A stretch of DNA of 64,000 bases from a phage: sequence record PQ400055.1; one strand, written 5' to 3'. Both the position numbers and the translations under genes were made by a program. The notes under the pieces were generated by a model. The model had not been told where the DNA came from. It did not search any database and saw only the letters and a program-made list of their open reading frames with translations. Below, in pieces: positions 12,651 to 19,402 of this stretch. Position 1 is the first letter of the stretch. The number at the start of each line of letters is the position of its first letter.

Positions 12651-13676
12651 CTAACTTTTTGCGCTATTTACTTCTGCTAAAAGTTCATCAGAGATACGCT
12701 TAACTGCCGCAAGTTCTTCCGGTTCTAGGTTTTGTTCTTCCAGATATTCATAGACCATCTGAATAGTGCTTTTAACTTCAATAACACCTGTTTCCTGTGA
12801 TGCGCTACTCTCCAGTTTATGGACCACTTTTAGCTTGTGTACAACGGCCTCTAACGCGCTTTCTAACTTAGTTAACCCATTATCAGCAACCGTTGCAATA
12901 AGACGCACACTAAGCCCCTTAAAGCGTTCTACATCGATTTTATCATCTGACGGGTAAGTGATACGCACATGATAAGTTTTGTCATTCTGGATAAACTCTT
13001 TTTTGTGTGTATCGGTATCGAATACCCAAAACCCACGCGGATCGTTTTCGTCACCCGCCGTTAGTGTGTATGGTGTACCGATATACGTTACATTACCGCC
13101 ATCGCTGATAGTATGAAAATGACCGGAAAACACTTCACGGTATTTCTTGAGGAAGTCCGCGCTATAACCTTCGGATTTTAGCCCTTTATAGAAATAGTAA
13201 CCGGACAATTCCCAATGGCCTACACAATATTCGCTGAATGAGTTTTGAATAAACTCTAAAATCTCTGATTTATTGTCATCACAAAACCACGGGAACAGAT
13301 CAAATGATACACCATCAAAGGTAACTGTTTCCGGTTTATCGATAACCTTAATGCAATCATACTGGCTTAACACTTCACGCGGTGCGTTAGGCTGGATCTT
13401 GTTTCGTTTAAACATATCATGGTTCCCGACCGTGATATAACAAGTAATTCCAGCCTCTTCCAGTAATGGGATGACCTTAGTACGGTTAAATTTCATGGTT
13501 TCATGGGTAATTGCTTTTCGGCAATCAAACCAATCCCCTGTTTGAATCCATGTCTTAATATTATGCTCTTTGGAGTATTCAACCGCCTTCTTGATGGTAT
13601 CAAGAATATACTCATGCACCCACGGATCATCGCCACCGATACCAGTATGCAGATCACCTAAAAGCAAAATTTTCAT
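12651..13676 (-). CDS. 47: recombination endonuclease subunit gp47 (Mre11/SbcD-like phosphoesterase)
   Basis: 341 aa; MKILLLGDLH, GDWFD, GNHD, GHWE, GHFH metallophosphatase motifs; T4 gp47-like. Confidence 0.9.
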   Translation of the reverse strand: MKILLLGDLHTGIGGDDPWVHEYILDTIKKAVEYSKEHNIKTWIQTGDWFDCRKAITHETMKFNRTKVIPLLEEAGITCYITVGNHDMFKRNKIQPNAPREVLSQYDCIKVIDKPETVTFDGVSFDLFPWFCDDNKSEILEFIQNSFSEYCVGHWELSGYYFYKGLKSEGYSADFLKKYREVFSGHFHTISDGGNVTYIGTPYTLTAGDENDPRGFWVFDTDTHKKEFIQNDKTYHVRITYPSDDKIDVERFKGLSVRLIATVADNGLTKLESALEAVVHKLKVVHKLESSASQETGVIEVKSTIQMVYEYLEEQNLEPEELAAVKRISDELLAEVNSAKS

Positions 13677-13766
13677 AGTCTCTTCCTCTCTTCGTTTTCG
13701 ATGCTCTCACTATATCACAGAAAAATAAAAAGGGAAACCCCTTTCAGAGTCTCCCTTATAAAGCCA

Positions 13767-14054
13767 TTACAGCATACTTAATACCGTTTGCCGTGTACTA
13801 ATCCACATAGCAGAAAGCAGTTCTGGCGTGTGTGGCTGTTTGTAGATATCACGTAACTTTCCGATAGCGTAGATATACGCATCACGGTTATCATCGATGA
13901 TAGCTTGTTCAGCCCACCGCTTAAGGCGTGCAATCTCTCGCGAGTTCTTACGCAAGATCTTTTCCGCTTTCTTAGCGGCTTTAGCCTCTAGTTCTGCTTG
14001 TACTTTGTCTACTTCATTCACTGCAATCTGGTCATGCTGTTCATTGCAAGTCAT
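13767..14054 (-). CDS. hypothetical protein
   Basis: 95 aa ORF between 47 and 55 (T4 has alpha-glucosyltransferase here; this ORF is too small to be one). Confidence 0.45.
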   Translation of the reverse strand: MTCNEQHDQIAVNEVDKVQAELEAKAAKKAEKILRKNSREIARLKRWAEQAIIDDNRDAYIYAIGKLRDIYKQPHTPELLSAMWISTRQTVLSML

Positions 14055-14055
14055 A

Positions 14056-14289
14056 TTATTTTACCTCTGGGATATAATCAATTATTAAAGAAAATTCATC
14101 TTCTGATACATTATAGCTATGTGAGATTGTACCCGTAAAGACCTCAAGATCCGGTGATTTGATATTGCACGGATCGATAATCACCGGAACGCCGCAATCT
14201 CTCAAAAATAATTTGGCGAAATACGGCACAAGGTCAGTTTCAAACTCTGCTTCTTCCAGCAAACGGGAAATGTTAATTTTCAATCTCAT
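14056..14289 (-). CDS. hypothetical protein
   Basis: 77 aa ORF overlapping the 3' end of gene 55. Confidence 0.45.
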
Positions 14290-14806
14290 AAAATTGGTCC
14301 AAGCTAGGCAATTCCTCGGTCAATACATCTTCAACCTTTGGCGCTTTCGGTTTATTGACCGATTCCTCGTAGTTGTTGATTTTATCGTAAATGTCCTGTA
14401 TGAATGCCTCATCAGCAATCTGGCACATATCAGCGTCGCGTTCGTCATATACATGATGCACAAAATATTTGTATTTTGCGGCTGTCGCTGTTCTCTCTTT
14501 TTTAATGCGCTGTACAAAAGCATTAAAGCACGCTTGCGTGATGTAAGCATGAGGATTTTTATACTTTGTCTCGTCAAAATTAATCAAACCCTTGACCGCC
14601 GCTTCGATTCCGTCGTCGATCATTTCTTCGCGCCACGTTTGACTATAACCAGAAAAGTTAAAACGACGTGATAGATTTTTAGAGATTTGCATAATTGCTA
14701 GGCCGATTTGATCGCTCATTGGAACTTGCCGACCTTCTGCTGCAATTTGTTGTTTCCAACGGCAAATTTCTTCGTAAAGCTCTTTATTGTTTACATAATC
14801 AGACAC
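14273..14806 (-). CDS. 55: late-transcription sigma factor gp55
   Basis: 177 aa; YVNNKEL...RFNFSGY...[29 protein letters not shown] nearly matches T4 gp55; the start codon appears to be GTG. Confidence 0.85.
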
Positions 14807-14846
14807 TTCGCACCCTCGCTATTATTTAGGAAATAACCCTTTCGGG

Positions 14847-16316
14847 CTATTCCCCATTACCATTATACTTTCTTTGCTTAGTTATCCACACTCTAACCAT
14901 CTCTACAGATTCGCCGTCAGACGGATCAAGAGTTTTTCCTTTTTTCTTCATGCGGTACTTAAATCCGTTAAATCTTGCATTCTCTTGCTCGTTAAAGTCG
15001 AACATCTTTTTAAATGATTTTCGCCCTTTACGTTCACCACATTCTAGCGGAATCATTCGATCTGTTATTACATTGGCATTAGGCAGAAACGTTTTTAGAT
15101 AATCCACCAACGCCCAATCAGGAACATATAGATTAACATTCTCCTTGCTCTCGTTGTCTCTCAGGTTACAACGCAAACATAATTGAAATGCTGGTTCCAG
15201 ATAATCAGACACATGACGCGCTTTCAAAAACTCGTTTGTCGGGAGATCACAACTATTAGCAAGACCTTTTAAAATATCAATCTCCCATCGTTGAGGGTTA
15301 AAGCTGAACATCACAGCAACATTTTTATGATGAATGTAAGAGTTAAGACCATAAGACCCGTAAGGTATCCGCTCACCAATACCATTTGTACACGCTTCAC
15401 GGTCCCGATTCACGGTATAAATGAAGTCATCGCCACATTCATTTTTAACCATATCAACAAGACGTTCAAAGGTATTGTTTGTTTCTGACTGGTGACGCGA
15501 CCATCGTTCAGAGTCCGTCATAAGGATGATATTAACTCTATCTGTATTTTTATACTCTTTGAAATATAGTCTGGATTCTAGCGCACTCGGAACAAAATCG
15601 CAATTTGCATAGTATCGTAGATACTTCCCACTATATGTATCAAAGAGATTTGCACATGCTATCGTAACCTTTTTAAAGTCTCCCCACGTACCGTGTTTGT
15701 TATCGTTCAAGAAAACAATTTTCGACCCATTCTTCCGGTGTCCTTCGTTATGTTTTACCATAACGTTGATTTTCTTCTCTAATAACGCCTCATAAAGCCC
15801 TCTAAGAGAAGAATCGATCATATCAGTACCATCCTTCGCACTTTCTATCTTTTCTTTGATAGCGGCCTTCTCAGAGTCTTTTAGAACTAAGTTCTGTAGG
15901 CATTCCGATTCGTCGGCGATTGGTTCGCAATGCTTCGTGATAAGTTCAAGATTAGACTTAAACGGATACTCATTAAATTCAACCAGTTGAGGAACTTCAT
16001 CAATGTAAAGAGCATAATCACCAAACATTTTTGAACGTTCCATATTAGATAACGCTGTATGTGTAATGAATATCACATCAGCACCATCTTTAACTGATTG
16101 CATTATCGACGCTTGCACTGTCTTAAGGCTTCTTAGTCTTGTGCTATCAATCAAGACAGCACGACCGCCCATTCTTTTAAACTTATTGTAAGATTGTTCA
16201 CTTAAAACACGAGATGGCGAAGCAATAACCGCTTTTTCTTTTGTCTCTAGGACGTGGGAAAGTATAGCATCAGTTTTCCCCGCCGCTGGCAATGCGATTA
16301 ATGTTTCAATCTTCAT
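14847..16316 (-). CDS. uncharacterised P-loop NTPase with helicase-like N-terminal domain
   Basis: 489 aa; motif I ALPAAGKT, Ia-like ASPSRVLSEQ, DExx-like LYIDEVPQ; lysine/arginine-rich C-terminus; no T4 core counterpart recognised. Confidence 0.6.
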   Translation of the reverse strand: MKIETLIALPAAGKTDAILSHVLETKEKAVIASPSRVLSEQSYNKFKRMGGRAVLIDSTRLRSLKTVQASIMQSVKDGADVIFITHTALSNMERSKMFGDYALYIDEVPQLVEFNEYPFKSNLELITKHCEPIADESECLQNLVLKDSEKAAIKEKIESAKDGTDMIDSSLRGLYEALLEKKINVMVKHNEGHRKNGSKIVFLNDNKHGTWGDFKKVTIACANLFDTYSGKYLRYYANCDFVPSALESRLYFKEYKNTDRVNIILMTDSERWSRHQSETNNTFERLVDMVKNECGDDFIYTVNRDREACTNGIGERIPYGSYGLNSYIHHKNVAVMFSFNPQRWEIDILKGLANSCDLPTNEFLKARHVSDYLEPAFQLCLRCNLRDNESKENVNLYVPDWALVDYLKTFLPNANVITDRMIPLECGERKGRKSFKKMFDFNEQENARFNGFKYRMKKKGKTLDPSDGESVEMVRVWITKQRKYNGNGE

Positions 16317-16603
16317 TAGAAACCCTTACGTCGTGCTTTCTGGCATTTCTTGATCATTTTATCAGAAATTTCGCGCTTAGGTGCAATCTCTTTCACACCG
16401 AAAGCACTAATGCCAAATTCAGAGAGAATATATTCAACAAACAATTCACGCACACGCGCTTTACCGATATTCACGCCGTTATTTTTCAGATATGTCTGGC
16501 CTTCGACTTGCATCAGATCTAAATCTGCGTCGGTAATATTGATTTCTTCCATGCGCCCAAATCGAGAATAAACCATGTGTGCGATTGCATTGTGTACTAA
16601 CAT
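16316..16603 (-). CDS. hypothetical protein
   Basis: Start set to internal ATG (M7) with upstream GAGG; basic C-terminus. Confidence 0.45.
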   Translation of the reverse strand: MLVHNAIAHMVYSRFGRMEEINITDADLDLMQVEGQTYLKNNGVNIGKARVRELFVEYILSEFGISAFGVKEIAPKREISDKMIKKCQKARRKGF

Positions 16604-16624: not shown

Positions 16625-16783
16625 TTACTTAATGATACTTACTTTACCAGATCCATGACAATGAGCGCAACACCCATCACCACGCAATCCTGTTCCGTTA
16701 CAGTGTTTACACTTCTTCAACGGTAAAGCCATTATAGCAAATAAAGCAATAATGAATACCGAAACTAAATTCTCAATAATCAT
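16625..16783 (-). CDS. small membrane/Cys-rich peptide (52 aa)
   Basis: Below track cutoff; hydrophobic N-terminal segment then CKHCNGTG...GCCAHCHGSG zinc-ribbon-like motif. Confidence 0.3.
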   Translation of the reverse strand: MIIENLVSVFIIALFAIMALPLKKCKHCNGTGLRGDGCCAHCHGSGKVSIIK

Positions 16784-17042
16784 AAATCGCCCTCAGTTCT
16801 TTATAGCCTCCAATGTGCTCGTTGTCAATGAATATCTGGGGGTATACAAACCGGAGGCTCTTTGAGTTTAGCCTCCCCGCCAGTTCTTCAATCATATCAC
16901 GGTCGGGAATAATGTCAACCCCGACCTGCTTGAATACTGGTTTAAGTGTATACGGAATACCCAGATCATCCAGTAGCTTCATTGCACTAATACAACCATA
17001 ACAATGATAAGCCTCTTTCGGTATACCGTATATCTCGATCAT
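16773..17042 (-). CDS. nrdH: glutaredoxin-like protein (NrdH-like)
   Basis: 89 aa; active site CYGC; C-terminal YPQIFIDNEHIGGYKEL glutaredoxin signature; lies near nrdG as in T4. Confidence 0.65.
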   Translation of the reverse strand: MIEIYGIPKEAYHCYGCISAMKLLDDLGIPYTLKPVFKQVGVDIIPDRDMIEELAGRLNSKSLRFVYPQIFIDNEHIGGYKELRAIYDY

Positions 17043-17560
17043 TTCTCAGCCTTTAATCTTTCTAGTTCTTCTTCCAGTTCCTTGATCCGTTGGTCACGTT
17101 CAAAGTCACGCTGTAGCTTAGTGGCAAATACTCGCTTAAACTGATTGTAATCATCGATTTTAAACACTTCTTCTTCGCCATAGCGACGTACAGAAACTTC
17201 GTAGTTGTTGAAAAATTGTTCCAACATTGCATCAGTAGTCAGTTCTGACGACACCACTTTAAAATAACGTTCTTCTGATTGCAAAAACCAGTTGTGCGCG
17301 TATTCCCGTACATCATCAACATCTCGACAGGTGTATGTTTTTCCATCAATTTCAATCGCAGAAACATATTCGATATCTGACGCAATTTTTTCAAAAGCGA
17401 TAACTTTAAATGTACGGTCACCGATAAAGTCTGCTATTGCATCATTTGCAACACTGGTTGCAAATGCTTTCCGCGCTCGCTCGTTTTTCCACTGATAGGT
17501 CATACCAACAACAAACATATTACCATCAACAAACATATTACCAACCTCGCTCTTTACCAA
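17039..17560 (-). CDS. hypothetical protein, member of local paralog family (coiled-coil C-terminus)
   Basis: 173 aa; shares GxTYxWK...IEIDGKTY...F pattern with neighbouring ORFs; C-terminal KELEEELERLKAEK. Confidence 0.5.
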   Translation of the reverse strand: MVKSEVGNMFVDGNMFVVGMTYQWKNERARKAFATSVANDAIADFIGDRTFKVIAFEKIASDIEYVSAIEIDGKTYTCRDVDDVREYAHNWFLQSEERYFKVVSSELTTDAMLEQFFNNYEVSVRRYGEEEVFKIDDYNQFKRVFATKLQRDFERDQRIKELEEELERLKAEK

Positions 17561-18362
17561 TCAAAAATTCAACTTCACGACGTTTAATGTCTTCTTGAAG
17601 GTCTTTAATCTTCTGGCGATCTTGCATGATTTCATCCATCTTGTCAAGTGCCGCAATGAAATCATCGAAACGTTCAAAGGTTTTACCTTCATTTGCTTCG
17701 CCAAATTTAACCATTGTCAGGCCGTAACGACTACTAAACAGACGTTTCAACTGTCCAACGATCTTAGAATCAGTGGTTATAACTTCCAATTCTTCTACTT
17801 CACGAAAGAATTTTCTATCAGAATCAATAAACCAGCTAGTTCCTTTATGGTCTCTATCTTCGGTTGCGCTCATTAGAGTATGGTCTTTACCATCAATTTC
17901 AATTACATCAATTTGCCCACATGGACTAACATTTTTAACAGTAAAAGGTCTATAATTTATTGCTCGTGCAATAACATAATTAAGGTTAGATACGTTTTCA
18001 GCATAATGGCAGAAGTCGGTCATAGCATTCGCATCTTTCCAAGTATAAGTTTTACCAACTTCCCATTTCTGGGGAACTTCTTCAACTTCACGAAAGAATT
18101 TTCTATCGAATGGACTAAAGAAATATGTGGCAGTCCAAATGTCTTTTCCTGTAGCAGTTTTCGCCGTATGATAAACACCGTCTAGCTCTATTGCATCAAT
18201 CCAACCGTTACCATCGATCTCGATGATGGTAAATGGCTTGTCACCAATAGCTGCACTAATATCGCTGTTAAGTGGAGAAAGAACACCTTCTCCGTTAGTA
18301 ATAAACTCAGTTTTAGCGTTTTCATCTTTCCAGGTGTAGGTTTTACCAATTTCCCATTTCAT
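17538..18362 (-). CDS. hypothetical protein with tandemly duplicated ~95 aa domain (paralog family)
   Basis: 274 aa; two copies of MKWE(I/V)GKTYTWKD...IEIDG...DRKFFREVEE followed by a coiled-coil tail. Confidence 0.55.
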   Translation of the reverse strand: MKWEIGKTYTWKDENAKTEFITNGEGVLSPLNSDISAAIGDKPFTIIEIDGNGWIDAIELDGVYHTAKTATGKDIWTATYFFSPFDRKFFREVEEVPQKWEVGKTYTWKDANAMTDFCHYAENVSNLNYVIARAINYRPFTVKNVSPCGQIDVIEIDGKDHTLMSATEDRDHKGTSWFIDSDRKFFREVEELEVITTDSKIVGQLKRLFSSRYGLTMVKFGEANEGKTFERFDDFIAALDKMDEIMQDRQKIKDLQEDIKRREVEFLIGKERGW

Positions 18363-18374
18363 AATATATTCCCC

Positions 18375-18875
18375 TTAACCGATTTTATCAAGTTCGTTTA
18401 ATGCTTTCTCTGCTTCCTGTATAGCTTGCACTCTTTCCGGCATTTTGTCAAGAAAATCTTTCAACTCTTCAAAACTGGAGATATGACGCAAGGCATTAGC
18501 ACCGATAGCCGCATGTGATTTGCATTCAAAGCGAATTTTATAATTATCCATCGCCAATTTGAGAAGGTCTATTAGATCATATTCATGACCAGGCAATAAA
18601 ACTTCTTTGAAGCACGCTCGGTCGCCATCGGAAAACCATATATTATCACCAACATCGATAGAACTAATATAATCCCCTTCGTGATTATAGATTGAACGTA
18701 CATTACCCCAACGGTCTACCGTAGCGACAGTAAATGGTTTATCTAGATATGTAAACACACCATCAATATTAGGTTTTTGTTCGTAACGCCAACAATCACG
18801 CAAAATGCGCTTTTCGTCCTCACCAACCAACTTATATGTCTTCCCTTCTTCCCATTTCATAATATCATCTCTCAT
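18375..18875 (-). CDS. hypothetical protein (paralog family)
   Basis: 166 aa; N-terminus MKWEEGKTYKL..., same domain then helical C-terminus. Confidence 0.55.
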   Translation of the reverse strand: MRDDIMKWEEGKTYKLVGEDEKRILRDCWRYEQKPNIDGVFTYLDKPFTVATVDRWGNVRSIYNHEGDYISSIDVGDNIWFSDGDRACFKEVLLPGHEYDLIDLLKLAMDNYKIRFECKSHAAIGANALRHISSFEELKDFLDKMPERVQAIQEAEKALNELDKIG

Positions 18876-19402
18876 TTTTTGATACGTGATTCTAATTGGA
18901 TCATACGGTCGCGCGTTTGCTTGTATTCGCGGATAGCACCGATCCGGCTAGGCATACCATCAAGCACGCTCTTAATCCCTTCTAGGGTAGTGATTTTAGC
19001 AATGCTATTATGTAACCCCATCTTATCGATCAACTGAATGTCGTAGGCTTCCATAAGCAGACCCAGACGTTCTAAAGTTAGGTCTTCTTCTTTTTCTTCC
19101 GATTCTGGAATCTTAGGTTCAATAATAACTTCGGTAAAGAAACGACGCTCACCCGACCAAAACCACACACCGGAACAGCCAATAGGGGATTCTTTTAACG
19201 TCATAGAGTCGAAATCACTACCGATAATAGTAATTTCTCTAACATCACCATCATCGTCAATGTCTTCTACCCTAAACGGGCGACCAGCCAACAAGTCAAC
19301 AATACATCTGTTAATAGACGACGAAAATTTAGTCAGTTCGGCTTTCGACGCTTCGCATTCAATCTTGTAAGTTTTACCAACTTCCCATTCCATAATAATC
19401 AC
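18872..19402 (-). CDS. hypothetical protein (paralog family)
   Basis: 176 aa; N-terminus MEWEVGKTYKI..., ...GERRFFTEV, helical C-terminus. Confidence 0.55.
   Translation of the reverse strand: MIIMEWEVGKTYKIECEASKAELTKFSSSINRCIVDLLAGRPFRVEDIDDDGDVREITIIGSDFDSMTLKESPIGCSGVWFWSGERRFFTEVIIEPKIPESEEKEEDLTLERLGLLMEAYDIQLIDKMGLHNSIAKITTLEGIKSVLDGMPSRIGAIREYKQTRDRMIQLESRIKK

Follow-up and report, generated by a model that had tools for sequence, protein, structure and literature searches.

What is encoded between genes 55.2 and 55 in T4-like phages outside the T-even lineage? This question is raised by a stretch of 64,000 nucleotides from a phage (sequence record PQ400055.1, here called the window), in which an open reading frame (ORF) of 489 aa was first described as an orphan, helicase-like P-loop ATPase (hereafter the original prediction). 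The protein is a distinct, uncharacterised superfamily 2 (SF2) helicase of XPD/DinG-like fold. It has no iron-sulphur (Fe-S) cluster and comes from a family of helicases and helicase-primases of mobile elements. The best overall reading, to which we give a probability of roughly 55%, is that it acts as an accessory replication or recombination helicase.

A conserved gene with intact ATPase motifs

The ORF is a real conserved gene and not a chance ORF, because it was found at 99-100% identity in 57 phage records, has full-length homologues at 31-74% identity, and keeps its catalytic residues invariant. The region around it was 99-100% identical to the Krischvirus phages kaaroe, JSE, Phi1 and RB49. 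In RB49 the gene is annotated as RB49p044, "hypothetical protein". Its features, with the approximate boundaries of the insertion taken from the DSSP assignment of the structural model described below, are:

14847..16316 (including the stop codon), minus strand: helicase-like ORF of 489 aa with an ATG start, orthologue of RB49p044, phrog_2467
16272..16295, minus strand: motif I (Walker A), ALPAAGKT, aa 8-15; K14 invariant and G13 nearly so in 74 relatives
15987..16010, minus strand: motif II (Walker B), LYIDEVPQ, aa 103-110; D106 and E107 invariant
15672..15986, minus strand: insertion of ~105 aa (approximately aa 111-215), from motif II to the motif III-like TIACAN
15057..15581, minus strand: RecA2-like domain, approximately aa 246-420, carrying the equivalents of motifs IV-VI
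14850..15056, minus strand: basic helical C-terminal tail, aa 421-489, isoelectric point (pI) 9.8

Membership in SF2 was indicated by motifs I and II of the first RecA-like domain (AAGKT, aa 11-15, and DEVP, aa 106-109), and by a second RecA-like domain with motif VI arginines. The sequence ASPSRVLSEQ, taken as Ia-like in the original prediction, starts at aa 32, between ALPAAGKT (aa 8) and LYIDEVPQ (aa 103). The motif III-like TIACAN (aa 218) lies on the strand that returns to RecA1. RecA2 carries FIYTVN (IV-like), YGLN (V-like) and FQLCLRCNLR (VI-like), followed by YVPD. The Pfam family DEAD matched the protein at 27.3 bits, against a cut-off of 26, and the match was confined to aa 11-130. 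Residues 1-420 are slightly acidic (pI 6.25), and the last 69 residues hold 17 K+R versus 10 D+E.

Conservation was followed at two depths. In 41 close homologues (31-74% identity to the window protein), conserved blocks were present at every expected helicase position, and N223 of TIACAN was nearly invariant. In an alignment of 74 diverse relatives (17-43% identity), the sole invariant residues were K14, D106 and E107, G323 and N325 ("HGLN", at the position of motif V), and Q378, R382 and R386 (motif VI). Nearly invariant were G13, L38, N303, V398 and D400. The Pfam families DEAD and ResIII were detected in 54 and 32 of these 74 proteins, respectively. Such invariance of the catalytic residues is what an active NTPase kept by purifying selection would show. 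The reading of the protein as a catalytically intact SF2 ATPase, with RecA1 motifs I, Ia, Ib and II and with RecA2 equivalents of IV-VI, is thus well supported at the sequence level.

These results bear out much of the original prediction: the three motifs in their order, the SF2-helicase-like P-loop ATPase, for which two RecA-like domains were also modelled, and the Lys/Arg-rich tail. Its "divergent C-terminal half" turned out to hold the RecA2 domain with conserved motif IV/V/VI equivalents. The word "orphan" has to be dropped as well, given the family described next.

By tblastn, the 489-aa protein was found in 244 phage records, 59 of them at identities of at least 95% and 185 at below 60%. 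The latter group comprised phages of Erwinia, Proteus, Serratia, Morganella, Cronobacter, Citrobacter, Enterobacter and Klebsiella, as well as RB43/RB16 and many Aeromonas phages (25, 31, 44RR, 65 and Aeh1). No T-even phage appeared among the organism names, or among 60 evenly sampled rows of the 244 records. The protein matched phrog_2467 ("unknown function") end to end (E 3e-175), and no family was found in an NCBIfam scan. An exhaustive profile search of a representative library retrieved 1330 related clusters at E<=1e-3, 768 of which reached E<=1e-10. The protein is conserved, yet unnamed and uncharacterised.

Predicted fold

A structural model was built with AlphaFold2 from the alignment of the 41 close homologues. 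It was confident, with a predicted local distance difference test (pLDDT) score of 88.3 and a predicted template modelling (pTM) score of 0.76. From the N-terminus, it consists of a RecA-like domain, an insertion (about aa 111-215), the return to RecA1, RecA2 (about aa 246-420), and two long C-terminal helices. The nearest structural neighbours of the model were members of the XPD/Rad3/DinG family (match score, then alignment length):

Finegoldia magna DinG (9kqh): 18.3, 365
archaeal XPD (3crv): 18.1, 336
Type IV-A CasDinG (8s35/8e2w): 17.7, 320
archaeal XPD (2vl7): 17.4, 315
yeast Rad3: 17.4, 335
E. coli DinG: 14.5, 369

Hna and DdmD were also among the matches. Structural alignments to the XPD family were ~100 residues longer than those to other SF2 classes, and the insertion was covered by the XPD, DinG and CasDinG matches only. 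In XPD structures, the Arch domain is located between motifs II and III, and ~105 aa is roughly half the size of such a domain. Both the position of the modelled insertion and the ~100 additional aligned residues would fit a short Arch-like domain.

The four cysteines of an Fe-S domain, expected between motifs Ia and II, are absent, the first cysteine of the protein being C130. Only C130 and C380 were invariant cysteines in the 41 close homologues, and none was invariant in the 74 relatives. A 4Fe-4S cluster is also absent from some DinG and CasDinG proteins. The Pfam families DEAD_2 and Helicase_C_2 were not among the 25 families most frequent in the 74 relatives. We are highly confident of both the fold and the ATPase assignment, as an SF2 helicase or translocase that lacks an Fe-S cluster and falls in the structural class of XPD, Rad3 and DinG. 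It is predicted to work and fold like an XPD/DinG helicase, yet it is not filed in the XPD/DinG family by sequence or Fe-S criteria.

Primase fusions among distant relatives

The C-terminal tails of about ten of the 74 relatives contained a recognisable helix-turn-helix (HTH) domain (HTH_23, 28, 29 and 7). Tails of other relatives carried a basic "GRP...(T/S)xAE(K/R)Q..YR.R" motif. These tails suggest that, in the relatives, the helicase motor is commonly coupled to a DNA-targeting module.

Many relatives were ~750-890 aa long. Their additional ~350 residues contained the motifs LDxDxG, NSxS...RxRVxIP and GxDxxK...FYLPC, and matched a PHROG "DNA primase" family (E 8e-6). The ~800-aa relatives (alignments A5/A6; loci L010 and L016) are N-terminal SF2 helicases of the XPD/DinG-like type joined to a C-terminal AEP primase-polymerase. 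They also possess a terminal helical domain with noise-level PriCT-like matches, in most cases a GRP/basic linker between the domains, and adjoining resolvases. The reverse arrangement was found in the 877-aa protein P0131, in which an N-terminal AEP domain (DFDED, GSGHVY; PHROG "DNA primase", E 8e-4) is followed by the helicase core and a C-terminal HTH. The profile of the T4-like helicases matched P0131 at E 2e-27. Fusion to a primase in both orientations is strong guilt-by-association for a role in DNA replication or repair synthesis. The 489-aa window protein has no AEP domain, its chain ending after the 69-aa tail.

Remote-SF2 domains fused to All3500-type AEP primases, with their closest homologues in "some T4-like phages", were reported by Kazlauskas et al. 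2018 (PMC5862659). This family is very probably the same as that of the window helicase, and the reported fusions share the architecture of P0131, an N-terminal AEP followed by the helicase. The report consists of one paragraph without a fold assignment; it gives the latter domain order, and describes neither the helicase-N/AEP-C order nor an integrase-island context (PMC5862659). The supplements of that study contained no RB49 identifier, and membership of RB49p044 in pVOG1685 was not confirmed there.

An alternative is that the protein spends ATP on binding or remodelling DNA and not on unwinding, for repair or end-joining rather than replication, in the manner of IEE and SF2 proteins of the Swi2/Snf2 type. 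The IS-excision enhancer (IEE) of E. coli mobile elements joins an AEP to a different SF2 domain, and acts in end-joining without DNA unwinding. However, its domain order is opposite and its helicase domain was aligned with RadD, whereas the best structural matches of the window protein, and the sole ones to span its insertion, are the bona fide 5'-3' helicases XPD, DinG and CasDinG. We consider a non-unwinding remodeller unlikely.

Mobile islands carrying the relatives

In nine of the ten informative non-phage contexts of the relatives, a site-specific recombinase lay within ~3 kb of the gene. It was a DUF6538-type tyrosine integrase in four Pseudomonas loci (L008, L011-L013) and in the metagenomic contig L023, and a serine resolvase or recombinase in L010, L014, L015 and L016. 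Island cargo was variable and included Pycsar, AIPR, TIR and type I restriction-modification genes. The five tyrosine-integrase loci (L008, L011, L012, L013 and L023) shared a constant core of the integrase and a ~480-aa helicase with a C-terminal HTH, combined with changing defence cargo. Because the recombinase-helicase pair is constant and the cargo is not, the helicase can be seen as a core gene for the maintenance of small mobile islands.

In L008, L012 and L013, the helicase gene is closely followed by long AT-rich palindromes or tandem 11-mers. They are candidate operator or origin sites, or may be terminators. A search of viral contigs for loci related to those of P0077, P0107 and P0127 returned almost nothing, and two phage-type contexts of distant relatives, with small ORFs and HNH endonucleases, were uninformative.

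The defence-island context of the relatives, together with CasDinG, Hna and DdmD among the structural matches, would suit a protein of conflict, one that serves counter-defence, the exclusion of other phages or the hijacking of another element's DNA rather than the phage's own replication. We regard this as improbable. Next to the recombinase, the helicase persists whatever the cargo, which is how a core gene behaves, and the primase fusions point to DNA synthesis. A PADLOC scan gave nothing beyond a chance-level match, and at least six phage genera have inherited the gene vertically at one core position.

The locus in T4-like phages

The helicase ORF is flanked by two genes of the same orientation:

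14273..14806, minus strand: gene 55, late sigma factor (phrog_234, E 4e-63), downstream of the helicase ORF
16316..16603, minus strand: gp55.2 homologue, 95 aa, pI 9.4, DUF7570; RB49p045, "gp55.2 conserved hypothetical protein"

The original prediction had placed the ORF directly upstream of gene 55 and next to a co-oriented small basic protein; the positions agree, with a 40-nt spacer before gene 55, and the small protein is the product of the known T4-family gene 55.2. The spacer (14807..14846) runs from the helicase stop to the GTG at which gene 55 starts, and holds a small hairpin, CCC-GAAA-GGG, with TTATTT after it. This hairpin might act in RNA stability or attenuation.

The order nrdH - (0-2 ORFs) - 55.2 - helicase - 55 - a-gt.4 - 47 - 46 was found in four genera, represented by RB49 (Krischvirus), Aeh1 (Cinqassovirus), phage 65 (Ishigurovirus) and Pm5461 (Bragavirus). 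In all four phages, gene 55.2 overlaps or abuts the helicase gene. RB16 kept the overlap, but it is rearranged and has gene 34 downstream in place of 55. In Aeromonas phage 25, two extra genes sit between 55.2 and the helicase gene. The same interval of the T-even phage RB14 holds 55.1 and one further small ORF, and no helicase gene. Overall, synteny was kept across Krischvirus, Pseudotevenvirus, Tulanevirus, Cinqassovirus, Ishigurovirus and Bragavirus. This is most simply read as a gene passed on vertically at one fixed position, and lost or replaced on the T-even branch. The helicase gene is an ancient accessory gene of T4-like phages outside that branch, and in the 244 records it nearly always lies at the site 55.2 - helicase - 55.

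One neighbour in phage 25 is a DprA-like gene (phrog_768, E 6e-66; L002 2929..3504), whose stop overlaps the helicase start by 4 nt. It has a homologue in 44RR according to the record annotation, and is absent from the Krischvirus window.

No strong sigma-70-like promoter was found directly before the helicase ORF; the best candidates lay within nrdH, before nrdH and before 55.2. Expression would thus probably be from a leftward early/middle polycistronic unit.

Other differences and small genes were noted around the locus. RB49 carries an HNH/AP2 endonuclease gene, RB49p040, between 47 and a-gt.4 (L001 3123..3677). At this site the window has a mere ~90-nt gap with a terminator-like hairpin (13676..13767), so that Krischviruses differ in whether they carry this homing endonuclease. 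Between nrdH and 55.2, a 52-aa ORF (16625..16783, minus strand) encodes a hydrophobic N-terminal helix followed by CKHCNG and CAHCHG (two CxxCxG). This zinc-ribbon-like mini-protein matched phrog_3931, and gave weak DnaJ_CXXCXGXG-type matches. Four consecutive ORFs of 173, 274, 166 and 176 aa lie between nrdH and nrdG (17039..19402, minus strand; RB49p048-051, hypothetical). They form a tandem paralogue array with a common N-terminal "W-E/K-x-GKTY" domain, which occurs twice in the 274-aa ORF. The 173- and 274-aa ORFs, the two that were scanned, matched phrog_5347, and the 274-aa ORF also weakly matched "goF mRNA metabolism modulator" PHROGs.

Relationship to gp55.2

The 95-aa ORF matched DUF7570 at 97.4 bits (cut-off 27), and was 40.6% identical to T4 ORF 55.2 over 92% of its length. 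At TAATG (16314-16318), the TAA stop of 55.2 shares one base with the ATG of the helicase, an arrangement typical of translational coupling. From this overlap, which was conserved in five of the six lineages examined, the helicase is probably translationally coupled to gp55.2. In T4, gp55.2 is a DNA-binding inhibitor of host topoisomerase I, non-essential yet fitness-improving (PMC4396842). Homologues of 55.2 were present in 1092 phage records, versus 244 for the helicase. Because ~850 of these records are helicase-free, 55.2 does not need the helicase, and the pair is not an obligate module. The suggested two-gene module thus holds in part: the overlap and its probable coupling speak for it, while the far wider distribution of 55.2, and the function that 55.2 has of its own in T4, speak against it.

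Inhibition of topoisomerase I would lead to more negative supercoiling, which would favour strand opening and R-loops. E. coli DinG removes R-loops, and helicases of the DinG type act on such substrates. By this analogy, one may speculate that coupling to a putative topoisomerase I inhibitor links the helicase to R-loop-type substrates.

Another reading is a late-transcription helicase, similar to XPD of TFIIH or to DinG, that works with gp55 and gp55.2 in opening late promoters, clearing R-loops or settling conflicts between transcription and replication. Its main support is adjacency: apart from the rearranged RB16, each lineage examined has the gene beside gene 55, and in five of the six the 55.2 stop overlaps the helicase start. 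The inhibition of topoisomerase I by T4 gp55.2, the R-loops this favours and DinG removes, and the presence of the TFIIH subunit Rad3 in the fold class would also agree with it. However, T-even phages run gp55-dependent late transcription without the helicase gene, and in RB16 the gene adjoins 34 instead. The distant relatives go with primases and recombinases, not with transcription genes, and the T4-like gene order at this site is inherited and hence no evidence of function. A late-transcription role is the least likely of the readings weighed here.

Proposed role

We infer that DNA is the substrate and that the protein has a replication or recombination role. It would translocate on single-stranded DNA in the 5'-3' direction, predicted solely by its fold class, and be tethered to DNA by the basic tail. 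It would use ATP to open or remodel DNA for the replication and recombination machinery of the phage, at initiation or priming sites, or in R-loop or D-loop processing. For the replication/recombination role taken alone, we see the odds as even or a shade better.

A more specific scenario is a DNA-targeted initiator helicase that opens replication origins or priming sites in non-T-even T4-like phages. Such a protein would descend from an ancestral helicase-primase of mobile elements, of which only the helicase is left, and would partner gp55.2. It would have been lost in T-evens, which rely on R-loop and recombination-dependent initiation. This scenario is unlikely.

Several observations weigh against a replication or recombination helicase. 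The helicases gp41, Dda and UvsW are already present in T4-like phages, and T-evens lack the gene, so that replication of the T4 type can proceed without it. No primase or recognisable HTH domain is part of the T4-like form, and homology of its basic tail to the GRP tails of the relatives was not supported (hhalign probability 0.7%). No iterons, AT-rich origin-like region or repeat array were found around the helicase gene in the window. At E<=1, the protein did not match DEAD_2 or Helicase_C_2, and in sequence searches of PDB chains neither the single protein nor the profile of 41 sequences gave a meaningful match to a solved structure. The one characterised AEP fusion with a different SF2 helicase, IEE, works in end-joining and does not unwind. 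No biochemical or genetic work on the helicase gene or its relatives was found in the literature. The gene was also considered as a substitute for MotA-dependent R-loop origins; as a clean correlation this was rejected, since 44RR has MotA (PMC1524935) and carries the helicase gene too.

T4 is the reference for replisome and recombination biochemistry, yet it lacks this fourth, uncharacterised helicase, which a large group of related phages (RB49, RB43, and those of Aeromonas, Proteus and Serratia) has at a fixed core position. The assignment to the XPD/DinG fold class without Fe-S, together with the link to a family of 1330 clusters that is fused to primases and lies at the core of integrase-bearing defence islands, turns a "hypothetical protein" into a testable enzyme. 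The relatives also point to what is probably the replication module of small, defence-spreading genomic islands. Should the phage protein prove to open origins or process loops, this would mean that members of the T4 superfamily differ in how replication is initiated.

Comparison with known systems

XPD, Rad3 and DinG share the modelled fold class with the window protein at sequence identities of 9-16%. The window protein differs from them in the absent Fe-S cysteines, in the short insertion of ~105 aa, and in the basic helical tail, which is unique to it.

IEE resembles the ~800-aa relatives in combining an AEP primase-polymerase with an SF2 ATPase in mobile elements. In contrast to these relatives, it has the two domains in the opposite order, and its helicase domain aligns with RadD and not with the XPD/DinG type. 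IEE has an AEP domain, whereas the window protein has none.

The herpesvirus origin-binding protein UL9 follows a shared plan, an SF2 motor and then a C-terminal DNA-targeting module. The UL9-type family PF02399 matched two of the 74 relatives weakly (best E 1.4e-3) and did not match the window protein.

Closest to the proposed role are T4 gp41, Dda and UvsW, which are likewise phage-encoded DNA helicases of replication and recombination, and of which UvsW is also a member of SF2.

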